DNA from: a virus
Virus genome (UHGV): UHGV-2172388
Direction: 5' to 3' (one strand)
Length of the DNA: 32,728 bases
Below are positions 1 to 32,728 of the stretch, in pieces. A model generated the notes under the pieces. The model saw nothing but the letters and a program-made list of their open reading frames with translations, did not search any database and had not been told where the DNA came from. The stretch's first letter is position 1. Each line of letters opens with the position of its first letter. A program made the translations under genes and the position numbers.

Positions 1-634
1 TGCTATGTCCCTTCATTGACGCTTTTCTATTTTCTCAGCGTGTTTTCCGCAAACTTTATTCACCCATATGGATACTTCGATTCCGAGCGGCGGCTGTCTT
101 GTTCACAATTTCGATCACGAGGTGCTCCTCTGGCGCATATTTAACGATCTGGAGGCTTGGGTCGAGAGAGCGGTTCTGACCAAAAGCGGGCATCGATGGC
201 ATCAGCACAGCGCTGCAATGCCCCCGGTTGTCGATACCATGGCATTTGCTGATAGGGTCACATGGTATTTGCTATATCTTCGATTCAGCGTCGGCCTTAT
301 ACCATGAAAAATGCCATTGATAATGCAGTCAATATCATCAATGGCACTCACTAAATCAAATAAAACAATAGTTTAAATAATAGCCTCACTCCCACTCGAT
401 TATCTACAGCCAACTTAATCAATTGATTTTAATAATCTAAATCGAGACCTACTACCCAATTTACCGTCAGTTTTACCGTCCACAGAAGAAAGTAACCCAA
501 CGGCAACGAGTTATCATTACCGGGCATATTAACATGCTGGCCAGTGGAAGAATGGGAAGTAAATGGCAGGCAAACATAATGGCTGCTTTTTAACCTATCT
601 ATATATACCAAAGTCCGTGGGGGCTTCGGAAAAA

Positions 635-910
635 GGTAACCTTCGTAACCTGCAACGAAAAATCAAAATAACTTAATGAATAAAAAGGATTTTTCAAAAA
701 CAGAGAAAGGTAATCTTCTGGTAACCAAAGGGTAATCAGGTTACCTTTTATAATAGTGATCTCTTCTAATTGGTAACATTATGATTTATATGAAAATATA
801 AAACAGGTTACCTTTTGGGTTACCTCAGATTACCTTTTATGGGTAACCAAATTTCTCTTTTATAAACAATAGAATAAGCATTATTTTTACTGCCAATTAC
901 TGAGGTTACC
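635..910. repeat. Iteron-like array: 7 perfect GGTNACC copies (GGTAACC/GGTTACC) plus about 5 one-mismatch copies, often as AGGTTACCTTTT, in AT-rich non-coding DNA
   Basis: Direct reading: perfect copies start at 635, 720, 739, 806, 818, 842, 904; near-copies at 644, 709, 731, 772, 828. No convincing ORF overlaps. Confidence 0.6.
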
Positions 911-1099
911 TTTTCCCGACAGGCGATCCAAAAATACCGAAAGGATCGTGGCATTGTCCTCCCGATCGTCTCTGGCGCATACACAGGGCGCATAAATCCG
1001 CATGATTCTGCTGTACCTGCAACCCGACCACGCCCTCCCGTTATGGCCCGCTCCGACGCTTACGCACCAGTGCAAAAAAAGCGATCTATTTACTGCGCA

Positions 1100-1118
1100 G
1101 GCGTGGCGGGGTCACAAC
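1100..1118. other. cos: Candidate cos (cohesive end) site, GGCGTGGCGGGGTCACAAC
   Basis: Resembles the P2/186 19-nt cohesive end (GGCGAGGCGGGGAAAGCAC as I recall it) and lies just outside the portal gene where P2 has cos. Similarity judged from memory only. Confidence 0.3.
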
Positions 1119-1233: not shown

Positions 1234-2214
1234 TTACTCTGAATCGTCGTCGGCAAGGCGGTACTTTTTGAAGCGAATAACCTCCAGCCCCAACCAGTCG
1301 TTCAGTTCCTTAAAGCGTTCCTGCAGCGGCTCGATCTCATTGCAGTTGAATACCTTCGCCGCTTTGATGGCATCACCAAAGCCACCGGCGTTACTCGGTA
1401 CCACGCCCATGAGCGCGGGCGGTACCCGGTGCGCGGCTAACTGGTCGTCACGGCTGACGCTTTTAATATCGGAGAAGTTATCTTTCGCCGCCACCTCGCC
1501 AATCGGGATCACCTTTACGCTGTCCGGTTTGCCGTTCGGCAGATACATCAGCAGATTGCGGAAGTTGCCGGGGCCACGGCTATTCGCCAGCGCCTCCTGT
1601 AACGCCCCAATATCCGCCTCGTTATGGGCTGGGTCGCTCAGGTAGAGGATGAAACCGGCATGACTGCCGTTCTTGTAGTAGCGACGGCGAAACAGCGTGG
1701 CGGAGTTATCCAGCCATGCCGCGTTCAGCGCAGAGAGGTATTCAGGCAGGCCGTAGATTTCCTGATTGATATCCGGCTCCAGTAGGTGGCCGATACTGCC
1801 CGACGCAAACTCATGATCCACTTTACCGGGCTGAACAAAGAAATAGCTGTCCAGCGCCTTGCCGCGCCGGACATACTTCGCCAGCGCAGGCACCAGCGTT
1901 AACGGCTGGCCCAGCCGGTTATCCTGCCGCTCCAGATAGGCATTGCCGAACACCAGATAGTCCAGCGCAAGGCGGCTGAACGCCTGCCGGGTCAACAACG
2001 TATGAGGTATGAAGGTACCAACCAGCACATTGCGCTTCACGCAGATCGGGCTGGTATGATGTGCCGAAGCGCGGAACGACAGCGCCAGCGAATTAAAATC
2101 CACCGGCGGCGCATACCATTTGCCAAAGTCTACGCACTCCAGATAGTTCAGTATTTCCCGCCTGTCCAGCAGAGCTTCGGGTTCACCGAAGGTGAAAGCC
2201 ATTGTGTTATTCAT
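1234..2214 (-). CDS. Q: Portal protein (P2 gpQ-like)
   Basis: 326-aa ORF; position and orientation as in P2; start ATG overlaps the P stop as ATGA; sequence recalled as P2 Q family. Confidence 0.85.
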   Translation of the reverse strand: MNNTMAFTFGEPEALLDRREILNYLECVDFGKWYAPPVDFNSLALSFRASAHHTSPICVKRNVLVGTFIPHTLLTRQAFSRLALDYLVFGNAYLERQDNRLGQPLTLVPALAKYVRRGKALDSYFFVQPGKVDHEFASGSIGHLLEPDINQEIYGLPEYLSALNAAWLDNSATLFRRRYYKNGSHAGFILYLSDPAHNEADIGALQEALANSRGPGNFRNLLMYLPNGKPDSVKVIPIGEVAAKDNFSDIKSVSRDDQLAAHRVPPALMGVVPSNAGGFGDAIKAAKVFNCNEIEPLQERFKELNDWLGLEVIRFKKYRLADDDSE

Positions 2215-3994
2215 CCGTACACCTTAATTAAGCCCCGCCCGCTGTTCGCGCCGCCGGAGCTTTCCAGTGGTTCATTGATAATGGCGTGCATACACGCCCA
2301 TGCCAGATCCGCGTGGGAGACTTCTTCCGAACGGCTGGCCTCGAAGGTTACCTGACGCCCGGACGGAGTCAGGGTTTTGCGGATCGCCATAAATGCCTGC
2401 GCCAGATCCGTCCATCCGGCGTCAAACTCCAGTCGGCGTTTACGGACAACGTCCAGCGTTTTCAGCACCAGACGCTGTTTCACTTCTGGGGAATAAGAGA
2501 ATGCCTGCACTGCCGGGAAGAACTGTTTCACCAGTTGATGCACGCCGTGGCCGATGCCGGTCACGTCAATACCGATGTAAGTCACGTTATAGCGCTCGGT
2601 AATTTTGCGGATATTTTCCGCCTGCGCCGCGAAGTCCATCCCGTGCCACTGGTGCTTTTCAATTACCCGAAACTTGCCGCCCTCAATGACCGGCGGCGCG
2701 ACCACCACGCATCCGGCGCTGTCGCCGCTTAACGCCGGATCGTAGCCCACCCATACCGAGCGTTCGCCGAGCGGACGCAGGGCAAACGGCTTGTAGTCGT
2801 CCCAGACTTCCCAGCTATCGACCATGCAACCCTGCAACATGCTGAGCGGGAATACCGATGCGGTATCGTCAATAAACTGGCACATAAACAGGTTGGCGAA
2901 CTCTTCCGGCGAGTTCTCCAGCCTGAGTTGCTCAAGGTCGAACAGGTCATAACCCTGATTGATGGCATCCTCAACGGTGACGATTTGCCGCCACTGGCCG
3001 TCTTCACACAACCGCCCTGCCGACAGCGCCCGATGGCTGATATCCAGTCGAATCTGTTCGCTCTTCGGCCTGCCCTTGTTGAACAGTTGCCCTGTCCAGA
3101 ACTTATAGGCTTCATGGGTGATGCTGGACGGCGTGGAGAAGTAGGTTTGCCGCCAGCGCTTCTGGCTGGCCATCCCCGCCGCGTTACGGCGCAGTTCCAG
3201 AAAGCGGTGTATCCAGAAGTATTCATCCAGATACAGGTTGCCATGATAGGTCTGGGCGGTGCGGGCATTAGTGCCGAGAAAATACATCCGGCTATCATTA
3301 TGCGGCAGGTGAATGACTTCGCCTTTCAGCTCAACATCCGCCTCACGAGCAAAATCGACAATGTACTGGCGGACTGGTGCGCCTGCGCTTTGGAAGCAGA
3401 GAGAAAGATCTGGTTGCGCCCACTTTCCACCGCATCCATAAACCCTTCCCGCCCGAAGAACATCGTCGCCCCAATCTGGCGCGACTTGTTGATATCGCGG
3501 ATACGGTGTTCCAGTCCGGCGCGGTACCAGTGTTTCTGGTGCGGATACAGCCCGTCCAGAAATAGCTGTTTCAGCTTCTCCGCCTGCTCCTCGCTGATAT
3601 GGTTGGTTTCCGGCTGTCTGCGCGGCCCGGCGTTACGCTTCGCAAGAGCAGGATTCAGGTCGACCTCATTGCCTCCCTGCTGATAGCGTTCAACCCTTGC
3701 CCCGCGCTCCATCTGCCGCCAGAGCAGGTCGATCTCCTTAAAATCCTTCCCCTCTTTATTTTCCTTCACCGTGAGCTGGATCAGACGCGCCTCGGTCACC
3801 GCCGTCACCCGCTCCAGCGGGGCGGATTCATCCCAGCCGTCGCGCCGCTTCCAGCTATGCAGCGTGGTAACTTTCACCCCCAACAGTTCGGCGATCCGCG
3901 CGATGCGAAAACCCTGCCAGTACAGATAGCGGGCTTTGCGGCGTGGATCTTCATCCTGAAGGGCAAGCAGATGTTTTTCGATGTCTGGCGGCAT
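2211..3994 (-). CDS. P: Terminase large (ATPase) subunit, P2 gpP-like, interrupted by an apparent frameshift near 3376-3392 (possible pseudogene or sequencing error)
   Basis: Two ORFs in different frames (3326..3994, 222 aa N-terminal part; 2211..3287, 358 aa nuclease part). The downstream frame stays open upstream to about 3500 and reads ...[17 protein letters not shown]... Together about 590 aa, the size of gpP. Confidence 0.8.
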
Positions 3995-24051: not shown

Positions 24052-25154
24052 CGATGTTAAACGCACTCTTAAACGCCCAGCCGCAGCCGGAGTACAGCGT
24101 GGTGCTGAACGGTAAGGACATTACGCGGAATCTGGACAACCGCTTAATCAGCCTGCGTATCACCGACAACCGGGGCTTTGAGGCCGACGAACTGCAGCTC
24201 GAACTGGACGACAGCGACGGCCTGCTGGCGTTTCCGGCAAAGGGCGAAAAAATAACGGTTTCTCTGGGCTGGAAGGGTGACGGCGTGATGCACCAGAATG
24301 TCTTCACCGTGGACGAACTGGAGCACAGCGGCGCACCGGACGTACTCAGTCTCCGCGCCCGCAGCGCCGATTTCCGCGATTCGCTGAACGTTAAACGGGA
24401 ACAGAGCTACCATGATGTGACGCTGGGCGCGATTGTGCAAACCGTGGCGGCACGTCATAAGCTGGAATCAACCGTCAGCGGCGAGCTGGCTGGGATCGCC
24501 ATTGAGCACGTTGACCAGACTAACGAGTCTGATGCGTCCTTCCTAACCCGGCTGGCGCAAATGCACGGCGCTATCGCCTGCGTGAAAAATGATGCTCTGC
24601 TGCTGATGCCGACAGGTTCCGGTAAAAGCGCCAGCGGCAAGCCGCTGCCGGTCGCAACCATTAACCGCGAGGACGGCGACAGCCACCGGTTCAGCATCGC
24701 GGACAGGGAAGCCTATACCGGCGTAACGGCCTACTGGCTGGATACGCGGCAGGCTAAAAAGCAGTCAACTGACGTGAAGCGCAAGACACGGAAAAATCTT
24801 CCGCAAACGCAACCAACAGAATCGCCGACGTCAGACACCTCATTCAACGCCGATAACGTGATGGTCGGCGAAGAGGGAAATATCAAGGTGCTGCGCCACA
24901 CCTATGCCAACAAAAATAACGCCTACAGAGCGGCAAAAAGCGCGTGGGAGCTATTACAGCGAGGCGCGGCAACGTTCAGCCTGAATCTTGCGCGCGGACG
25001 GCCCGATTTGTTCCCGGAACTGTCGGTGCAGGTGAAGGGGTTTAAGGCGGAGATTGACGGCACCGCGTGGGTGATTACGCGGTGCGTGCATACGTTGGAT
25101 AACAGCAGTGGGTATGGGACGGCGGTGGAGTGTGAGTTGGGGCTGGAAGATTAA
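24048..25154 (+). CDS. D: Tail protein / late control protein D (P2 gpD-like)
   Basis: 368 aa; ATGA overlap with U; synteny. Confidence 0.85.
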   Translation: MTMLNALLNAQPQPEYSVVLNGKDITRNLDNRLISLRITDNRGFEADELQLELDDSDGLLAFPAKGEKITVSLGWKGDGVMHQNVFTVDELEHSGAPDVLSLRARSADFRDSLNVKREQSYHDVTLGAIVQTVAARHKLESTVSGELAGIAIEHVDQTNESDASFLTRLAQMHGAIACVKNDALLLMPTGSGKSASGKPLPVATINREDGDSHRFSIADREAYTGVTAYWLDTRQAKKQSTDVKRKTRKNLPQTQPTESPTSDTSFNADNVMVGEEGNIKVLRHTYANKNNAYRAAKSAWELLQRGAATFSLNLARGRPDLFPELSVQVKGFKAEIDGTAWVITRCVHTLDNSSGYGTAVECELGLED

Positions 25155-26152
25155 TATCCAATACCGCTACTTACACCAACATCACTTAAAATCATTCTCA
25201 ATTCGTTCAAATATCCAGGTAACGGCCATTCTTGCTGTAATTTATTACTGTCTTCATTTATTGCCAGCCAGTAAGTAAAAATGACCACTGGCTGCGCAAA
25301 AAAAAGATTGGCAGTAGCCCTTTGTTGGATTTTATATGATATATATTTTTTCTTATCAAGAAGGTCGATTAGATTAGTCAAAAGATCTTCTTGTATAAAC
25401 GACCTATACTCATCTAAAAAACAATAATTTATTTTATCTTCCTGATTTAAATACTGTCTCCCAATTTTATTTATATAAAAATCTTTTAACTCCTTTAAAA
25501 AATCATTTCTTGGTTTATTAGTATCACATAAAAGCCGCATTGTATTACAAAATAATTCATCTGTTGTTTCCATCAAAGCCATACTACGCGCAATTTGGCG
25601 CTCCGCTTTTTTCGGTACTGGGCCAACAGGTTTATAAACGCTATCATGAACTAATTCTGCATACGCATGCTGCAATAATGTTCTAATTTGTACTTCACAG
25701 CACATATCAGTTGTAATATTAACTCCCGATATAACGCTATTTATCTTTGGCCTTATTTCAAAATGCTTTGATTGATAATCAAATAGTTTAGGGTTTACCT
25801 CTATTTCATCCTGATAATCTTTAGAAACAACAGCTATCCATTGTTCATTATTCTGAATGATTTTACAGATTGTCTCAATATCTTCAGAAAGTAAAACGAC
25901 AAAACGAACGCCAACGAGATCCGTCATCTGCTGAACAGGGTTGTTATAACCTTTACGACCAACCTTCCCTAATGCGGACTCGATACCTTTAACTCTCGGA
26001 GTGGGTGGTACCTTGATGAAGAGCTGGGCGGCCCCTTCACCAAGTTGTTCAATCAAAGCCGCATTGATTTCAGACGCAATATGTTTACCCCATGCTTCAT
26101 AAGCAGCATGGTTTTCAACCAGATAACGTCTAAAATCCTCTATACTCATCAT
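25151..26152 (-). CDS. RelA/SpoT-family nucleotidyltransferase (small alarmone synthetase / toxSAS-like) with about 140-aa C-terminal extension of unknown fold
   Basis: 333 aa in AT-rich DNA; synthetase-domain motifs RVKGIESALGKVGRKG, DLVGVRFVV, CEVQIRTLLQHAYAELVHDSVYK; ATGA overlap with the upstream gene. Confidence 0.7.
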   Translation of the reverse strand: MMSIEDFRRYLVENHAAYEAWGKHIASEINAALIEQLGEGAAQLFIKVPPTPRVKGIESALGKVGRKGYNNPVQQMTDLVGVRFVVLLSEDIETICKIIQNNEQWIAVVSKDYQDEIEVNPKLFDYQSKHFEIRPKINSVISGVNITTDMCCEVQIRTLLQHAYAELVHDSVYKPVGPVPKKAERQIARSMALMETTDELFCNTMRLLCDTNKPRNDFLKELKDFYINKIGRQYLNQEDKINYCFLDEYRSFIQEDLLTNLIDLLDKKKYISYKIQQRATANLFFAQPVVIFTYWLAINEDSNKLQQEWPLPGYLNELRMILSDVGVSSGIGY

Positions 26153-27237
26153 TCTTGACTTTTCAACCGCCCTTTGACTTTAAGTGTAGTTGACTCATCA
26201 TCATCTGTTTGTTCAATCTGTACCAGTTCTTTTACTTGATCTGGTGGTATGGATATCCATACATCGCTTGTAAACACTAATTTACTTCTACGACGAAGCT
26301 TTTTCTTAATATAATCAGTATCTTTAGACACTGCATTCTGCGGAAAACCTTTTTGAGCCATAAATGACTGATAGCTCGTCTGTAATTCTTGAGGAAGATG
26401 TTCCGTAGCAAACGAAGCGGTACTCAAAGTTGCTTTCTGACTTCTCAGTTCAGAACGTAATGACTCGTGTAAATCAAACTTAGTTTCTTCATCAACTGGA
26501 GCCTGATTAATGAAATTTCGAGTATGTTCAAAAAAATCCTGCGTCAATTTCTTGGAGGATTTTTCGATCCCCATTCCAAGAAAAACACTGTAAAAATACC
26601 CCGCAGCATTTTTAGTTTCCGTCGATGTCATCAAGTGATCAAATAAAAATGAACGATAATATTGCGTATCACAACGACCATCAATCAATTCATGGCCTGA
26701 CTCACACTCAATCAACACTCCTATTTTATAAAGCCGCTGAGTTGGTGTAAGTAATAAGTCAGCAATATACTCCATCGCTATTTTCTCTGGGGTATCATTG
26801 GTCCGAAATCCGTTTTGCATTTCAGCACGCAGTACAGCAAAGAATGGGCAGGCTTGTTCACCAATTTTTCCCGTAATGATTACTAACACACCACCGGAAA
26901 CCTTCCCCGCACTATATTGAGCTTCTGTTAACTTATGCGCCAATCGCTTAGATACGTTAATAAATGATTCGCCTTCAACATGTAGTACAGACGTTGTCAG
27001 TGCAAAAAAACTATCATCACCGGTATCAGTGATAGACATTTCAATGCCATGAGATTTATTACCTAAGGCTTCTGTTATACGAACCTGTAGTGCATCCAAA
27101 GCATCTTGTTCTAACGTTATTAACTGATTACTTAACTTAGGTGGAACCATTTGCTTATCGGGAGACCTTGGGAAGATTCGATGAGCAATAATTCTTTCAA
27201 TCATCACCCCCTCAAAAGAAAAGCCGACATTTGCCAT
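26149..27237 (-). CDS. NdpA/YejK-like (NA37 nucleoid-associated protein family) hypothetical protein
   Basis: 362 aa in AT-rich DNA; by-eye resemblance to E. coli YejK in several blocks (IERIIAHRI vs INQIALHQL; GG-hydrophobic block); assignment from memory. Confidence 0.45.
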   Translation of the reverse strand: MANVGFSFEGVMIERIIAHRIFPRSPDKQMVPPKLSNQLITLEQDALDALQVRITEALGNKSHGIEMSITDTGDDSFFALTTSVLHVEGESFINVSKRLAHKLTEAQYSAGKVSGGVLVIITGKIGEQACPFFAVLRAEMQNGFRTNDTPEKIAMEYIADLLLTPTQRLYKIGVLIECESGHELIDGRCDTQYYRSFLFDHLMTSTETKNAAGYFYSVFLGMGIEKSSKKLTQDFFEHTRNFINQAPVDEETKFDLHESLRSELRSQKATLSTASFATEHLPQELQTSYQSFMAQKGFPQNAVSKDTDYIKKKLRRRSKLVFTSDVWISIPPDQVKELVQIEQTDDDESTTLKVKGRLKSQE

Positions 27238-28246: not shown

Positions 28247-30901
28247 ATGCAACCACAACTTCATCAGGAAATTACGCGGCGACTACTGGCCGACTTTTCC
28301 TTTAAAGAACAGGGCGACTGGCTGCGGCAGGGCATCTGCCCGGACTGCCAGAAAAAAGAGCTGTACACCAATGCCATCAGCCCGTGGGTATTGCGCTGCG
28401 GTCGCCTGAATAAATGCAATGCCGAAATCCACATCAAAGATATGTACCCGGATCTGTTTGAAAGCTGGTCAGACAGATATCCCCCAACCCCGGAAAACCC
28501 ACAGGCCGCCGCCGATGCCTACCTGCGCGAGATGCGCGGCTTTGACCTTTCGCTGATCCGTGACTGTTACACTCAAGAGAACTACTACGACCCACGGCGT
28601 GATATCGGTTCAGCGACGGTACGTTTCCCGCTGGCTGACGGCGTGTGGTGGGAGCGGATCGTTGACCGCCCACAGCGTTTCGGCGATCGCAAAGCCAACT
28701 TTCACGGCGCTTACAGCGGGCTATGGTGGCTATTGCCAACGCTGAAGCTGGAAGAACAGCAGGAGATCTGGCTGGTTGAGGGCATTTTTGACGCTATCGC
28801 CCTGCACCACCACGGCATTGCCGCCGTTTCCCTGATGACCTGTAACAACTATCCGGCGCAGGCGTTAAGCCAACTGGCCGCGCTGTTCGTGGATAAAAAG
28901 CGCCCTTTACTGGTCTGGGCGCTGGATAACGACAAGGCGGGCATGAGCTATACCCGGCGATGGGTAAAGCGCAGCCGGGACGAAGGCTGGAGCGCAGCCG
29001 CCGCACAGACGCCGCATTCCCGCAGCAAGCTGGACTGGAACGATTTGCACCAACGCGACCGGCTTAACCCAGAGCTAGTGAAGAAATACCGCTACTACGG
29101 CTCTCTGCTGATCGCCACCTCTCCCGCCGCCAAAGCCCTGCTGATGCACGAACAGACAGAGCGTAAAGAGTTCCACTTCGAGTTTGACAGCCGCCTGTTC
29201 TGGTTCAAGCTGGATATTGACCGCTATATGCGGGTGCATGAAAGTATCTCATTCTCCAATGACGACCTGAGCGAAGAAGAGCTGAAACAGAAGGCGCTGA
29301 AAGAGTCGTCCGCCGTGGTGGAGATCGCCAACTGCTACCCGACCGCCCTCTACTATCAGGCCAACACCATCACCGACGAAAGCTGGTATTACTTTCGCAT
29401 TAACTTCCCGGACGACACGCCGCCGATAAAAAACACCTTCACCGGCTCCCAACTTTCCAGCGGCTCAGAATTCAAAAAGCGCCTGCTGCATATCGCGCAG
29501 GGCGGCATCTTCACCGGCACCAGTCAGCAGTTAGATAAGTTGCTGCTCAAGCAGCTTCCCAAAATCAAAACTGTCCAGACCACTGATTTTATCGGCTACA
29601 GCAAAGAATACCGCGCTTACGTGTTCAACGATCTGGCCGTTCGCGATGGTCGGCTGTACACACTCAACGAAGAAGACTTCTTCGACATGGGCAAACTCAG
29701 CCTTAAAAGCCTGAACCAGTCGGTCAGCCTGACGCTGAACGACAATTTAAAACAGATGGACAGCCAGTGGCCCCAGCTACTCTGGCAGGCGTTTGGCGCA
29801 AAGGGCTTTGTGGCGCTGGCGTTCTGGCTTGGGACGATGTTTGCCGAACAGATCCGCGACAAGCACAAGAGCTTTCCGTTTCTGGAAATCGTTGGCGAAC
29901 CCGGCAGCGGCAAAACCACGCTGATAGAGTTTCTCTGGAAGCTGTTAGGCCGACGCGACTATGAAGGTTTCGATCCGTCTAAATCAACGCTGGCCGCCCG
30001 CGCGCGCAACTTTGCGCAGGTGGCGAACATGCCGGTGGTGCTGATCGAGGGTGACCGTAATCAGGAGGGTGCAAAGCAACGCGGCTTTGATTGGGAAGAG
30101 CTAAAAACCGCCTATAACGGGCGGTCAGTGCGGTCTCGCGGTCTGCGTAACAGCGGTAACGAGACCTATGAACCTCCGTTCCGGGGCTCGATTGTGATTG
30201 CGCAAAACGCCGACGTTAGCGCCTCTAACCCGGTGCTGGAACGTATTATTCACCTGTACACCGACCGCAGCGGCCAGAATACTCAGACCAAGGTCGCTGC
30301 CGAGCAGCTCGAACGCCTGCCGGTGGAACAGCTTTCCGGCTTTATGCTGAAAGCAGCGCTGGCGGAACAGGCCGTGCTGGAGTGCGTCAACCGGCAGATC
30401 CCGCTATACGAGCAGCAGCTTCACGCCCACCCCGATATTCGCCATATCCGCATCATTAAAAACCACGCCCAGCTTATGGCGCTGCTCGACGCGCTGGCGC
30501 TGGTTATTCCGGTCACGAAGGAGCAGCTACAGGCAACCAGAGAAATGTTTATCCGCCTCAGTCTGGAGCGCCAGCAGGCCATCAGCGCCGACCACCCTCT
30601 GGTGCAGGAGTTCTGGGATATTTTCGACTTCCTCGATGGCGACGACGAACCACAGCTCAACCACTCGCGCGATGAACAGCTTATCGCCGTCAACCTTAAC
30701 CACTTTATTCAACTGGCCACCGAACGTCGCCAGCAGATCCCACCAGTCAGCGATTTAAAGCGGGTACTGAAAACCAGCCGTACCCACAAGTTTATTGAAG
30801 TCAGAACGGTTAACAGCGGCATCAACGCTGAATTTAACCGCCGTTACCCAGCCGCATCGCGCCACCCGGCGACGGTGAAGTGTTGGGTTTTTCAACGATA
30901 A
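28247..30901 (+). CDS. Replication primase-helicase (N-terminal zinc ribbon, TOPRIM domain, C-terminal P-loop NTPase), P4 alpha-like
   Basis: 884 aa; CPDCQ...C..LNKC zinc ribbon; TOPRIM-like LVEGIFDAIALHHHG; Walker A GEPGSGKTT. Confidence 0.75.
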   Translation: MQPQLHQEITRRLLADFSFKEQGDWLRQGICPDCQKKELYTNAISPWVLRCGRLNKCNAEIHIKDMYPDLFESWSDRYPPTPENPQAAADAYLREMRGFDLSLIRDCYTQENYYDPRRDIGSATVRFPLADGVWWERIVDRPQRFGDRKANFHGAYSGLWWLLPTLKLEEQQEIWLVEGIFDAIALHHHGIAAVSLMTCNNYPAQALSQLAALFVDKKRPLLVWALDNDKAGMSYTRRWVKRSRDEGWSAAAAQTPHSRSKLDWNDLHQRDRLNPELVKKYRYYGSLLIATSPAAKALLMHEQTERKEFHFEFDSRLFWFKLDIDRYMRVHESISFSNDDLSEEELKQKALKESSAVVEIANCYPTALYYQANTITDESWYYFRINFPDDTPPIKNTFTGSQLSSGSEFKKRLLHIAQGGIFTGTSQQLDKLLLKQLPKIKTVQTTDFIGYSKEYRAYVFNDLAVRDGRLYTLNEEDFFDMGKLSLKSLNQSVSLTLNDNLKQMDSQWPQLLWQAFGAKGFVALAFWLGTMFAEQIRDKHKSFPFLEIVGEPGSGKTTLIEFLWKLLGRRDYEGFDPSKSTLAARARNFAQVANMPVVLIEGDRNQEGAKQRGFDWEELKTAYNGRSVRSRGLRNSGNETYEPPFRGSIVIAQNADVSASNPVLERIIHLYTDRSGQNTQTKVAAEQLERLPVEQLSGFMLKAALAEQAVLECVNRQIPLYEQQLHAHPDIRHIRIIKNHAQLMALLDALALVIPVTKEQLQATREMFIRLSLERQQAISADHPLVQEFWDIFDFLDGDDEPQLNHSRDEQLIAVNLNHFIQLATERRQQIPPVSDLKRVLKTSRTHKFIEVRTVNSGINAEFNRRYPAASRHPATVKCWVFQR

Positions 30902-30910
30902 GGAAATGTT

Positions 30911-31288
30911 ATGAACGAAATATTTAAGGCTCTGGCAACGCAAGAAACCCAACGACAAAGACTTTGCGTAACGCCAGAGGAATACCGCCTTGCTGTCAAT
31001 ACCCTTGTCGACGTTGCTCTCACAGAAACCACCGGCGGACGCGCGGCTGCGCAGGTACTGCTTTCTGCATGGAATGGCTACGTGTGGCAACTGGATATTC
31101 CCGACCTCTGTTATCTGGACTATGACCTGCTGGAACAGGCGCTGATCGTTATCCGGGGGCGGATAATGTTGATGAAAGAGCCGCAGGAGGTGATCCCGGA
31201 GGGGAATGCGGTGATGAAGCGGATTGCAGCGCAGTGGCAACACCTGAACGCCGAACGGCATGGGGAAAACAATGAAAATTGCCATTAG
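30911..31288 (+). CDS. Hypothetical protein (125 aa) downstream of the primase
   Basis: ORF with GGA RBS context, co-oriented with the primase; no family recognised. Confidence 0.4.
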   Translation: MNEIFKALATQETQRQRLCVTPEEYRLAVNTLVDVALTETTGGRAAAQVLLSAWNGYVWQLDIPDLCYLDYDLLEQALIVIRGRIMLMKEPQEVIPEGNAVMKRIAAQWQHLNAERHGENNENCH

Positions 31289-31528
31289 AAAAAACGTGCT
31301 TTTACAGATGGTGCCACTCTCTGAAAGTACGATTTATGCGTTGGAGCAAAAAGGCCTGTTTCCCAACGTTTTGCGCTAACGAAGCGCGCCGTCGCGTGGG
31401 ACAAAGAGGAAGTGGAACGCTGGCTCAAGACTCGGCAGGAAAATAACCATCACCATATTGACAGTGCGGTACAGAAGAATCTGGCCAAAGCACCAAAGCG
31501 CTCTGGTACCAAGATCCCCGCATAGTAC
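31272..31528 (+). pseudogene. alpA: AlpA-like (MerR-type excisionase/regulator) gene apparently disrupted by a frameshift
   Basis: Frame 1 gives MKIAIRKNVLLQMVPLSESTIYALEQKGLFPNVLR then stop; frame 2 continues ...LTKRAVAWDKEEVERWLKTRQENNHHH...; halves match the AlpA pattern (..STIYrl...G.FP....lg.RaVaW...ev..Wl). Confidence 0.35.
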
Positions 31529-32728
31529 TTACGGGCGGTATTGCTTGATCCACCCATCAACCATATCCGCCCACTGCTGCAACATATCACGGCGCTGCTC
31601 TGCGTATTCCGCTTTGTTATAAACGGCTCTGACGCTTCTTTCCTCGTGCGCGAGGCATTTTTCTATCCAGTCGGAATTAAACCCCGCCTCATGCAATAAC
31701 GTCGAGGCCGTTCGGCGCATATCGTGAACGGAAAACGACGCCAGCCTGATCCCCCGTTCCTGCGCCTGCTTAACCGTAAGATTAATGACCCGGTTTAAGG
31801 TCGCCGCCGACATGGTCTTATGCGACGACTGATTGCATGAAGGCAAAACCCAATCACTGCTTCCTGCGCACATTTTCAGGGCAATCAGAATGTCCTGTGC
31901 CTGCCGGGACAGATAAACATTATGATCCCGTGATCCCTTCATCCGGCTGGCGTCAATCGTCCAAAGGCAGGCATTAAAATTAACCTCACCCCACGGCGCG
32001 TTCAGCAGTTCACTTTTACGCACCATCGTTAATAAAACCAATTTAATGGCCAGCTTGATGGTGGGTAATGTACCCGTTTGTTCAAGCTGATTGAAAAACC
32101 AGCCTATCTCCTCTGGCTTGAGCGCCCTGTCGCGCGCTTCGAATGTCGCAATTGAAGCCGGTAAAACCTCTTCGGCAGGATTGGGGTAATAGTCGCCGTG
32201 AAGCGCGGCGAACTTAAATACCGCACTAACGATATTGCGAACCTGAATCGCCGTCGCTGGCGCACCACGCGCTTTTATCTTGTCGCAATACTCACGTAGG
32301 AGAGAGGGGGTTATCTCTGACAGCAGCTTGCGCCCCCATACTGGGGTGATGTCTCTGTCGATAATGCTTTGCTTCATCGCCCTTGTGCTGTCCGCCAGCC
32401 GGGTGTGTTTCATGTAGCTGACGGTAAAATCGTGGAGTGTCTTTTCTTCTTTTCGCTTTGTTTTACCGTCACGCTTCTCTCCAGCGGGCGATATTCCTGC
32501 ATTTACGCGTTTTTTAGCTTCCACTAATTTTTCGCGCGCCTGCGCCAGAGAAATACCGTCACCATAGCGACCAATCGTTAACGTTTCACGACGACCATTG
32601 ATTCGATAGTCATAGCGAAACGTCACCAATCCATTGGGAGATACGGTTACATACAGCCCATCACGGTCTGCAACTTTATAAAGTTTTTCCCGCGCTTTGA
32701 GGTTTTTCAGCTTGGTATCGGTCAGCAT
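31529..32728 (-). CDS. int: Tyrosine integrase, P4/CP4-57 type (N-terminal arm-binding domain)
   Basis: 399 aa; N-terminus MLTDTKLKNLKAREKLYKVADRDGLYVTVSPNGLVTFRYDYR typical of P4-family integrases; C-terminal catalytic region with conserved R...H..R...Y context; start codon at the window edge. Confidence 0.9.
   Translation of the reverse strand: MLTDTKLKNLKAREKLYKVADRDGLYVTVSPNGLVTFRYDYRINGRRETLTIGRYGDGISLAQAREKLVEAKKRVNAGISPAGEKRDGKTKRKEEKTLHDFTVSYMKHTRLADSTRAMKQSIIDRDITPVWGRKLLSEITPSLLREYCDKIKARGAPATAIQVRNIVSAVFKFAALHGDYYPNPAEEVLPASIATFEARDRALKPEEIGWFFNQLEQTGTLPTIKLAIKLVLLTMVRKSELLNAPWGEVNFNACLWTIDASRMKGSRDHNVYLSRQAQDILIALKMCAGSSDWVLPSCNQSSHKTMSAATLNRVINLTVKQAQERGIRLASFSVHDMRRTASTLLHEAGFNSDWIEKCLAHEERSVRAVYNKAEYAEQRRDMLQQWADMVDGWIKQYRP

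Follow-up and report, generated by a model that had tools for sequence, protein, structure and literature searches.

Between the left attachment site and cos of a phiCTX-like P2-family prophage lies an array of short repeats (positions 635 to 910) that is probably the replication origin, or an essential cis-acting replication region, of this phage, with the repeats as iterons for its primase-helicase. From comparison of related genomes we put the probability of this reading at about 0.68. The window, that is, the whole 32,728-nucleotide stretch of DNA analysed here, had received a first-pass annotation in which the array was taken either as an origin or as a cluster of arm-type sites near attL. 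The origin reading gained support since the array follows one primase-helicase family across genera, stands directly after the primase gene in some of them and co-varies with the C-terminal domain of the primase; the arm-type reading lost ground. The array has a conserved geometry and is independent of both att and cos. Binding by the primase, melting and origin activity are what we infer from this pattern.

Anatomy of the repeat array

The repeat cluster reported at 635-910 is real, with seven exact copies of GGTWACC (635, 720, 739, 806, 818, 842 and 904) and 4-5 near copies in AT-rich, gene-free DNA; copies with one mismatch start at 644, 709, 731, 772 and 828. The 32.7-kb window holds 11 GGTWACC in all, compared with 2.3 ± 1.5 in dinucleotide shuffles, and none of 100 shuffles had 11 or more. 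The 300-bp bin of the array is the densest of the window, with 11 matches, while all other bins have five or fewer. The G+C content of the region is 20-38%, and RefSeq annotates no CDS in the array of a 99.96%-identical record. A small RNA or a promoter cluster was ruled out, as a search of the array region against Rfam gave no match and promoter-like and terminator-like sites were not in excess there. A host intergenic repeat family was ruled out as well: 4 of 5426 complete E. coli genomes contain the array, each in a single copy and invariably within this prophage.

The repeat unit had been read as a palindrome, GGTNACC (BstEII-type), and this had to be given up. Since the seventh base is variable among the E. 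coli copies and other genera have the non-palindromic GGTAAT, we took the true unit to be the asymmetric hexamer GGTAAY, with the oriented consensus AAAAGGTAAYCT. Eleven exact GGTAAY/RTTACC sites lie within 635-910, plus a degenerate site at 644; an extra GGTAAC at 772 is not shared by all four E. coli copies.

The sites fall into ordered groups with spacings of 9 / 11, 11, 9 / 12, 10, 13 bp, and AT-rich spacers of 54-66 bp lie between the groups. Group A (635-649, plus strand) consists of GGTAAC at 635 and the degenerate CGTAAC at 644, 9 bp apart and both forward. Spacer 1 (650-708, about 20% G+C) leads to group B (709-745), whose sites at 709, 720, 731 and 740 are spaced by 11, 11 and 9 bp, the first three forward and the fourth reversed. 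The central spacer (746-806, about 20% G+C) holds the extra GGTAAC at 772 and an IHF-like site. Group C (807-847) has sites at 807, 819, 829 and 842, spaced by 12, 10 and 13 bp, with three reverse sites followed by a forward one. After spacer 3 (848-904, about 22% G+C), group D (905-919, minus strand) has a single GTTACC, which is a pair in relatives, followed by the conserved boundary TTTTCCCGA. Group C is thus the mirror image of group B, and the two halves of the array mirror each other. The IHF consensus WATCAANNNNTTR has a single match in the array, with one mismatch, at 774-786 (minus strand), which equals chance expectation, and in the array spacers it was found no more often than by chance. 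GC skew is negative almost throughout the window, with no informative switch.

The prophage, its attachment site and cos

The window is a P2-family prophage of E. coli integrated at the 3' end of guaA, and it matches the record of strain GMF054 (99.4-99.96% identity, 99.96% over 25 kb). Prophage-free genomes align up to position 400, under guaA, and prophage-bearing genomes align from 386. The attL core TCACTCCCACTCGAT occupies 386-400, at the junction of the displaced host guaA 3' end and the prophage. Past the integrase end, where a matching att arm was to be expected, the attR copy TCATTCCCACTCAAT does lie beside guaA, just past the integrase gene and outside the window.

The cos-like site of the first-pass annotation was correctly assigned. 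It is a P2-type cos with the cohesive-end sequence GGCGTGGCGGGGTCACAAC (P2: GGCGAGGCGGGGAAAGCAC) at 1100-1118 (plus strand), and the portal gene follows directly; the cos sequences of P2 and Smp131 are quoted in PMC3931495. The G+C-rich cos-proximal segment (920-1099) carries GCATRA repeats and GTGCAAAAAAA, which are common to P2 and are likely packaging signals, and it aligns with the right ends of P2, phiCTX, RSY1 and Halomonas phage 4908. The array sits between attL and cos, about 190 bp from the latter. The early module, at the right end of the window, encodes Ogr, the primase-helicase, DUF7673, an AlpA-like excisionase and a P4-family integrase. This linear gene order gives, in the circular phage, the order primase, DUF7673, alpA, int, attP, array, cos, portal.

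Several other features of the prophage were observed. The sole exact IHF consensus of the whole window (AATCAATTGATTA) is at 416-428 (minus strand), 16 bp into the prophage from the att core; it is compatible with an IHF site of attP, but a single match in the window is what chance alone would give. Compared with GMF054, one A is missing at 3373 (within 2211-3994, minus strand), which splits the large terminase gene into two ORFs, and one A is missing at 31365 (within 31260-31525, plus strand), which shifts the frame of the AlpA-like excisionase gene; in GMF054 and CEC15 the two genes are intact. Either homopolymer sequencing errors or a defective prophage would account for both. An island of 37-40% G+C at 25151-27237 (minus strand), between gene D and the HTH repressor, is a cargo hotspot, likely for anti-phage defence. 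It encodes a RelA/SpoT-domain protein of 333 aa (PADLOC candidate PDC-S33, E = 1e-13) and an NA37 nucleoid-associated-family protein of 362 aa; the equivalent cargo in GMF054 differs (DUF6037, an NA37-like protein and a hypothetical protein). Directly to the left of window position 1, GMF054 has two neighbouring DUF262-domain genes between yfgI and the displaced guaA 3' end (L001, 2472-5701). Strain CEC15 does not have this pair and its prophage abuts yfgI; the two genes look like a small island of their own at this guaA site.

Relation to the R3 repeats of phiCTX

The GenBank record of phiCTX (NC_003278) annotates 35100-35390 as 'containing R3 repeats' and gives two 'IHF binding site' features, one of them in the spacer equivalent to spacer 1 of the window; it states no function for R3. 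The layout of the R3 region is 9 / 65 / 11, 11, 9 / 66 / 12, 10, 12 / 54 / 9. The array in the window and R3 agree in the GGTAAY hexamer, in the grouping, spacing and orientation of their sites and in the ACCTTTTCCC boundary. Each is placed between attP and a P2-type cos, and each belongs to a P2-family phage with a primase of one and the same family (PHROG 1139). The 2-4-4-2 grouping is found at 635 (+644) / 709-740 / 807-842 / 905, with orientations as in phiCTX and Pseudomonas phage Dobby; the second site of the last pair is lost in the window. The window also differs from R3 in that its sites are mostly GGTAAC(C), the site at 644 is weak, the last spacer is 63 bp rather than 54 bp, an exact IHF consensus is lacking, and the integrase and att site are unrelated. 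By sequence comparison, we assign the array to the phiCTX R3-repeat family, as a positional and architectural counterpart of R3.

The same general layout (two sites, ~65 bp, four sites spaced by 11, 11 and 9 bp, ~66 bp, four inverted sites, ~54-63 bp, one or two inverted sites) was found in Dobby, Ralstonia phage RSY1, Stenotrophomonas phage Smp131 and Halomonas phage 4908, with some sites degenerate or missing in the last three. Spacing and orientation of group B are identical in the window, phiCTX and Dobby, and the outer pair (group A) is matched in phiCTX and all four of these phages, whose primases, with that of phiCTX, belong to the same family as that of the window (46-58% identity). 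The boundary ACCTTTTYCCGA is common to the window, phiCTX, RSY1, Halomonas phage 4908, the Endozoicomonas loci described below and ESSI2.

A search with the central four-site pattern matched 94 viral contigs and 92 species genomes. Most are from Gamma- and Betaproteobacteria and a few from Alphaproteobacteria; the few Firmicutes matches look unrelated. The hexamer itself changes in some phages, being TGTGAY in ESSI2_ev239, where the array terminates in the same GGTTTTCCGA boundary, CTGACA in PfPro, and AGGTAAT plus GCGATA in the L071-type phages. None of the complete genomes scanned has a second dense cluster of short repeats besides the array, and no clear array was seen within the examined portions of phage 2F_1 and contig MT836451.

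The records of phiCTX-like P2-family phages that we examined (Citexvirus, Arsyunavirus, Simpcentumvirus and many prophages of Pseudomonas, Xanthomonas, Stenotrophomonas, Ralstonia and E. coli) carry no replication origin annotation. The papers on Smp131, Dobby and RsoM1USA do not mention the array, and full-text searches of the accessible literature returned no description of an origin for these phages.

Pseudomonas phage arrays are flanked by an inverted repeat, GTTGACCC ... GGGGTC(A/G)A, and L071-type arrays have a G-run and a C-run as their flanks. Flanking elements were noted at ~340-350 and ~640-650 in L084, ~35088-35098 and ~35395-35405 in L085, and ~798-810 and ~1095-1107 in L191; the window has no clear counterpart of them. 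Two public records call for comment. The RefSeq record of Escherichia phage ESSI2_ev239 (NC_049392) ends, at 29119-29203, in Nextera/Illumina adapter (CTGTCTCTTATACACATCTCCGAGCCCACGAGAC...ATCTCGTATGCCGTCTTCTGCTTG) and poly-A, a contamination that has entered a public phage genome. In OR820920.1, 'Bacillus phage vB_BpuM-ZY1' (loci L090 and L093), the primase is ~55% identical to that of the window, its C-terminal domain is nearly identical to that of Halomonas phage 4908, and the portal-side gene order is alike; the Bacillus host therefore looks doubtful.

The primase-helicase and its association with the array

The proposed initiator is a Toprim and P-loop primase-helicase of 884 aa (28247-30901, plus strand). 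It matches Pfam Toprim_2 (E = 3e-12), has a weak AAA_22 match at its Walker A motif, and matches PHROG 1139 'DNA primase' along its full length. It had been called P4 alpha-like, which is right for the order of its domains and does not hold for its sequence, as the best BLASTP matches to alpha have E = 0.07 (Walker A) and 0.12 (Toprim). The C-terminal 98 residues (30605-30898, plus strand) are a putative iteron-binding domain, possibly winged-helix-like; structure models of the last 197 and the last 98 residues have pLDDT values of 95 and 94. Comparison with PDB chains gave no significant similarity for the primase, and no structural match to the origin-binding domain of P4 alpha was recovered; a counterpart of that domain was searched for in both sequence and structure and not found.

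In two Endozoicomonas genomes (L225 and L263), a full-length homologue of the primase (35% identity) ends ~90-110 bp before a complete GGTAAT array, with neither int nor cos between them. In phage phi3, whose primase is 34% identical, 19 CGGAACA/TGTTCCG sites start ~70 bp past the primase stop; they show the same outer pairs, 9 bp apart and in inverted orientation, plus an AT-rich island. In the window the two are farther apart: once the DNA is circular, DUF7673, alpA, int and attP lie between the primase stop and the array, ~2.3 kb in all.

Two positions in the primase C-terminal domain co-vary with the iteron. The residues are V(N/D)S ... (V/I)KCW in eight of eight GGTAAY phages, the distant Endozoicomonas included, a sample that is small and phylogenetically non-independent. 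With other iterons the residues change: TTRS ... FRCW in ESSI2 (TGTGAY), RVES ... MRCF in PfPro (CTGACA), KVRS ... LQCW in phi3 (GGAACA) and NVCS ... VRCW in L071 (mixed iterons). As a predictor of the motif, overall identity of the C-terminal 110 aa was uninformative, being 33-57% in all pairs.

In a Cupriavidus prophage (L270, 4076-4336) and a Thiobacillus prophage (L221, 1289-1555), small stand-alone ORFs near GGTAAY arrays show homology to the C-terminal domain of the primase alone (residues about 781-884; cf. PHROG 20645). By analogy with Cnr, which competes for iterons with P4 alpha, they may be regulators that compete for the same sites. These ORFs bear on another explanation, in which the array would be a platform for some other conserved phage or host protein and serve a purpose other than initiation. 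It could be a crr-like element for copy number and incompatibility (handcuffing) that is not itself the start site, it could act in partition, or a nucleoid protein could bind it as a silencer. They hint at regulation through the same sites; P4 keeps ori and crr apart with the same iterons in both, and DUF7673 is conserved beside the primase. However, each genome has one iteron cluster only, so a merely crr-like array would leave the phage with no recognisable origin, and the dyad geometry with AT-rich spacers has the look of an origin. We regard a role of this kind as unlikely.

Integrase arm-type sites

The integrase, suggested earlier to be P4-type, is a true P4-family relative (30% identity, E = 4e-40), a tyrosine integrase with an arm-binding domain encoded at 31529-32728 (minus strand). 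It belongs to the same early module as the primase, and we do not take it for the binder of the array. If the integrase or the AlpA-like excisionase, or both, bound the array, the repeats would be arm-type sites in the P' arm of attP. The array is indeed only 235-510 bp from the att core, and direct repeats phased by 10-11 bp are typical of excisionase sites. However, the arm role is already filled by another repeat, TTTACCGTCA, which is distinct from GGTAAY and flanks the core on both arms. Two copies lie at 460-481 (plus strand) as direct TTTACCGTC(A/C) repeats, likely the integrase arm-type sites of the P' arm, and about four lie in the arm between int and attR.

The array is also retained with at least four unrelated integrases, each having arm repeats of its own: ACGTAACAAGC in Dobby, GTTCCCA in phiCTX, AATTTTACCGG in Smp131 (noted in PMC3931495 too) and GTCCAC in ESSI2. 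The att sites of array-bearing phages vary as well, being guaA in the window, tRNA-Ser in phiCTX and tRNA-Thr in Smp131 (PMC3931495). Cargo genes fill the 2.2 kb that separate the array from attP in Smp131. Cargo also lies between array and integrase in L102 and L106, where the two are about 4 kb apart, and no integrase is near the Endozoicomonas arrays. The arm-type reading is largely refuted by these observations and we consider it highly improbable. The array is a phage element, neither a host repeat nor an att arm.

Packaging at cos

Array and cos lie a nearly constant distance apart in 74 of 80 viral contigs, and so they do in 56 of the 60 species genomes that carry the array and have a cos that could be detected. 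This is the strongest point for a role in packaging, in which the array would be an accessory site like lambda cosB, bound by the small terminase or IHF or both, and would position the terminase for the cut at cos ~190 bp away. The IHF sites annotated within the spacers of the phiCTX record fit this as well, and repeats with putative IHF sites beside cos resemble lambda cosB, which consists of R sites and the IHF site I1.

Against this, P2 has a homologous cos and terminase, yet its old promoter and cosR are no more than about 150 bp apart, which leaves no room for an array. Those packaging-type repeats that the window has in common with P2 (GCATRA, GTGCAnAAAA) are confined to 920-1099, outside the array. 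In five loci (L107, L158, L168, L262 and L270), 1.0-2.5 kb of cargo comes between cos and a complete array, and in L142 the intervening cargo is HicB-like. The P2-type cos of phi3 has no array next to it, and the Endozoicomonas arrays have no cos within their 8-kb loci. GGTAAT arrays are present in L071-type phages, although the terminase there is merely 43-45% identical and the P2-type cos profile finds no match; this profile found none in the Evevirus-like ESSI2, L071, L025 and L083. A cosB site has an obligatory fixed place by the cos nick and co-varies with the terminase, whereas the array is displaced by 1-2.5 kb in at least five loci, does not occur in P2, and goes with the replication protein, not with the terminase. 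The array is not an obligatory part of cos, and we find a packaging role quite unlikely.

A possible mechanism of initiation

If the array is the origin, initiation might proceed as follows. The excised phage DNA would circularise, bringing int, attP, array and cos into this order. The primase-helicase would recognise GGTAAY hexamers by its C-terminal domain, which may be winged-helix-like. The array offers two mirror-image halves (2 + 4 forward-biased sites and 4 + 1-2 reverse-biased sites) around the central spacer of 20% G+C, and its 9-13 bp phasing would let protomers sit along roughly one face of the helix. Two helicase rings could then assemble in opposite orientation, melt the AT-rich spacers and prime, and bidirectional replication would start; similar schemes have been put forward for P4 alpha (ori/crr) and SaPI Rep (its ori).

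A stronger version of this scheme is conceivable, in which the array is a rigid dyad-symmetric loading platform with a 2-4-4-2 geometry kept almost to the base pair from Enterobacteria to Neisseriales. Two hexamers of the primase-helicase would assemble on it head to head, above AT-rich spacers that are bent, and its near-constant distance of ~190 bp from cos would reflect a coupling of initiation to the terminase, so that the origin also marks the start of packaging. We think it doubtful that the array works in this coupled form; if it did, it would be a new type of phage origin architecture and not a plain iteron cluster.

As a replication origin, the array would give phiCTX-like P2-family phages, a large and widespread group, a testable origin in the form of a defined 280-bp cis element. 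It would also supply a candidate specificity code, in which V(N/D)S ... KCW goes with GGTAAY and other residues go with TGTGAY, CTGACA and GGAACA. Such a code could be of use in building replicons and in predicting incompatibility of co-resident prophages and satellites, and the system would lend itself to the study of self-loading by a single-polypeptide primase-helicase.

Comparison with known systems

In P4, the type-I iteron TGTTCACC occurs in both ori and crr and is bound by the alpha primase-helicase. In crr, ten of these repeats, some in each orientation, are packed into 300 bp, and the element is next to int at a distance of about 200 bp from the attP core. Like crr, the array consists of short repeats in both orientations, clustered in about 300 bp near attP and a P4-family integrase. 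The proposed initiator likewise combines a Toprim primase, a P-loop helicase and a C-terminal DNA-binding domain (putative here), and the flank ACCTTT follows the repeat in both. The iteron itself, however, is GGTAAY and not TGTTCACC, and the primase of the window lacks significant sequence similarity to alpha. P4 has two cis elements about 4.5 kb apart, whereas the window and the related complete genomes have a single cluster. At 4314-4335 of P4 (L094), iteron and flank TGTTCACCTTTC resemble GGTTACCTTTT and GATTACCTTTT of the window (806-816 and 828-838), and comparable combinations are TGTTCCGG in phi3 and TGTGAYGGTTTT in ESSI2; this could be a shared ancestral iteron or coincidence.

Rep of the SaPIs binds, via a C-terminal winged helix, 6-12 penta- or hexanucleotide iterons that are oppositely oriented around an AT-rich centre, and it is thought to self-load two hexamers (PMC9371898). 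The array has the same kind of arrangement, with iterons of 5-6 bp, opposed and flanking an AT-rich region (PMC9371898), in that groups B and C mirror each other across a spacer of 20% G+C. SaPI and PICI origins, to which self-loading helicases of the Rep or PriRep kind bind, lie immediately downstream of the initiator gene, as do the arrays of the Endozoicomonas loci L225 and L263 and of phi3, whereas the array of the window is ~2.3 kb from its primase gene. The window also differs in having three AT-rich spacers rather than one, and in being a complete P2-type phage rather than a satellite, with Gram-negative hosts. On the best reading, which draws on analogy with both systems, the array would work like P4 ori/crr or the SaPI ori, while by sequence it belongs to neither family.
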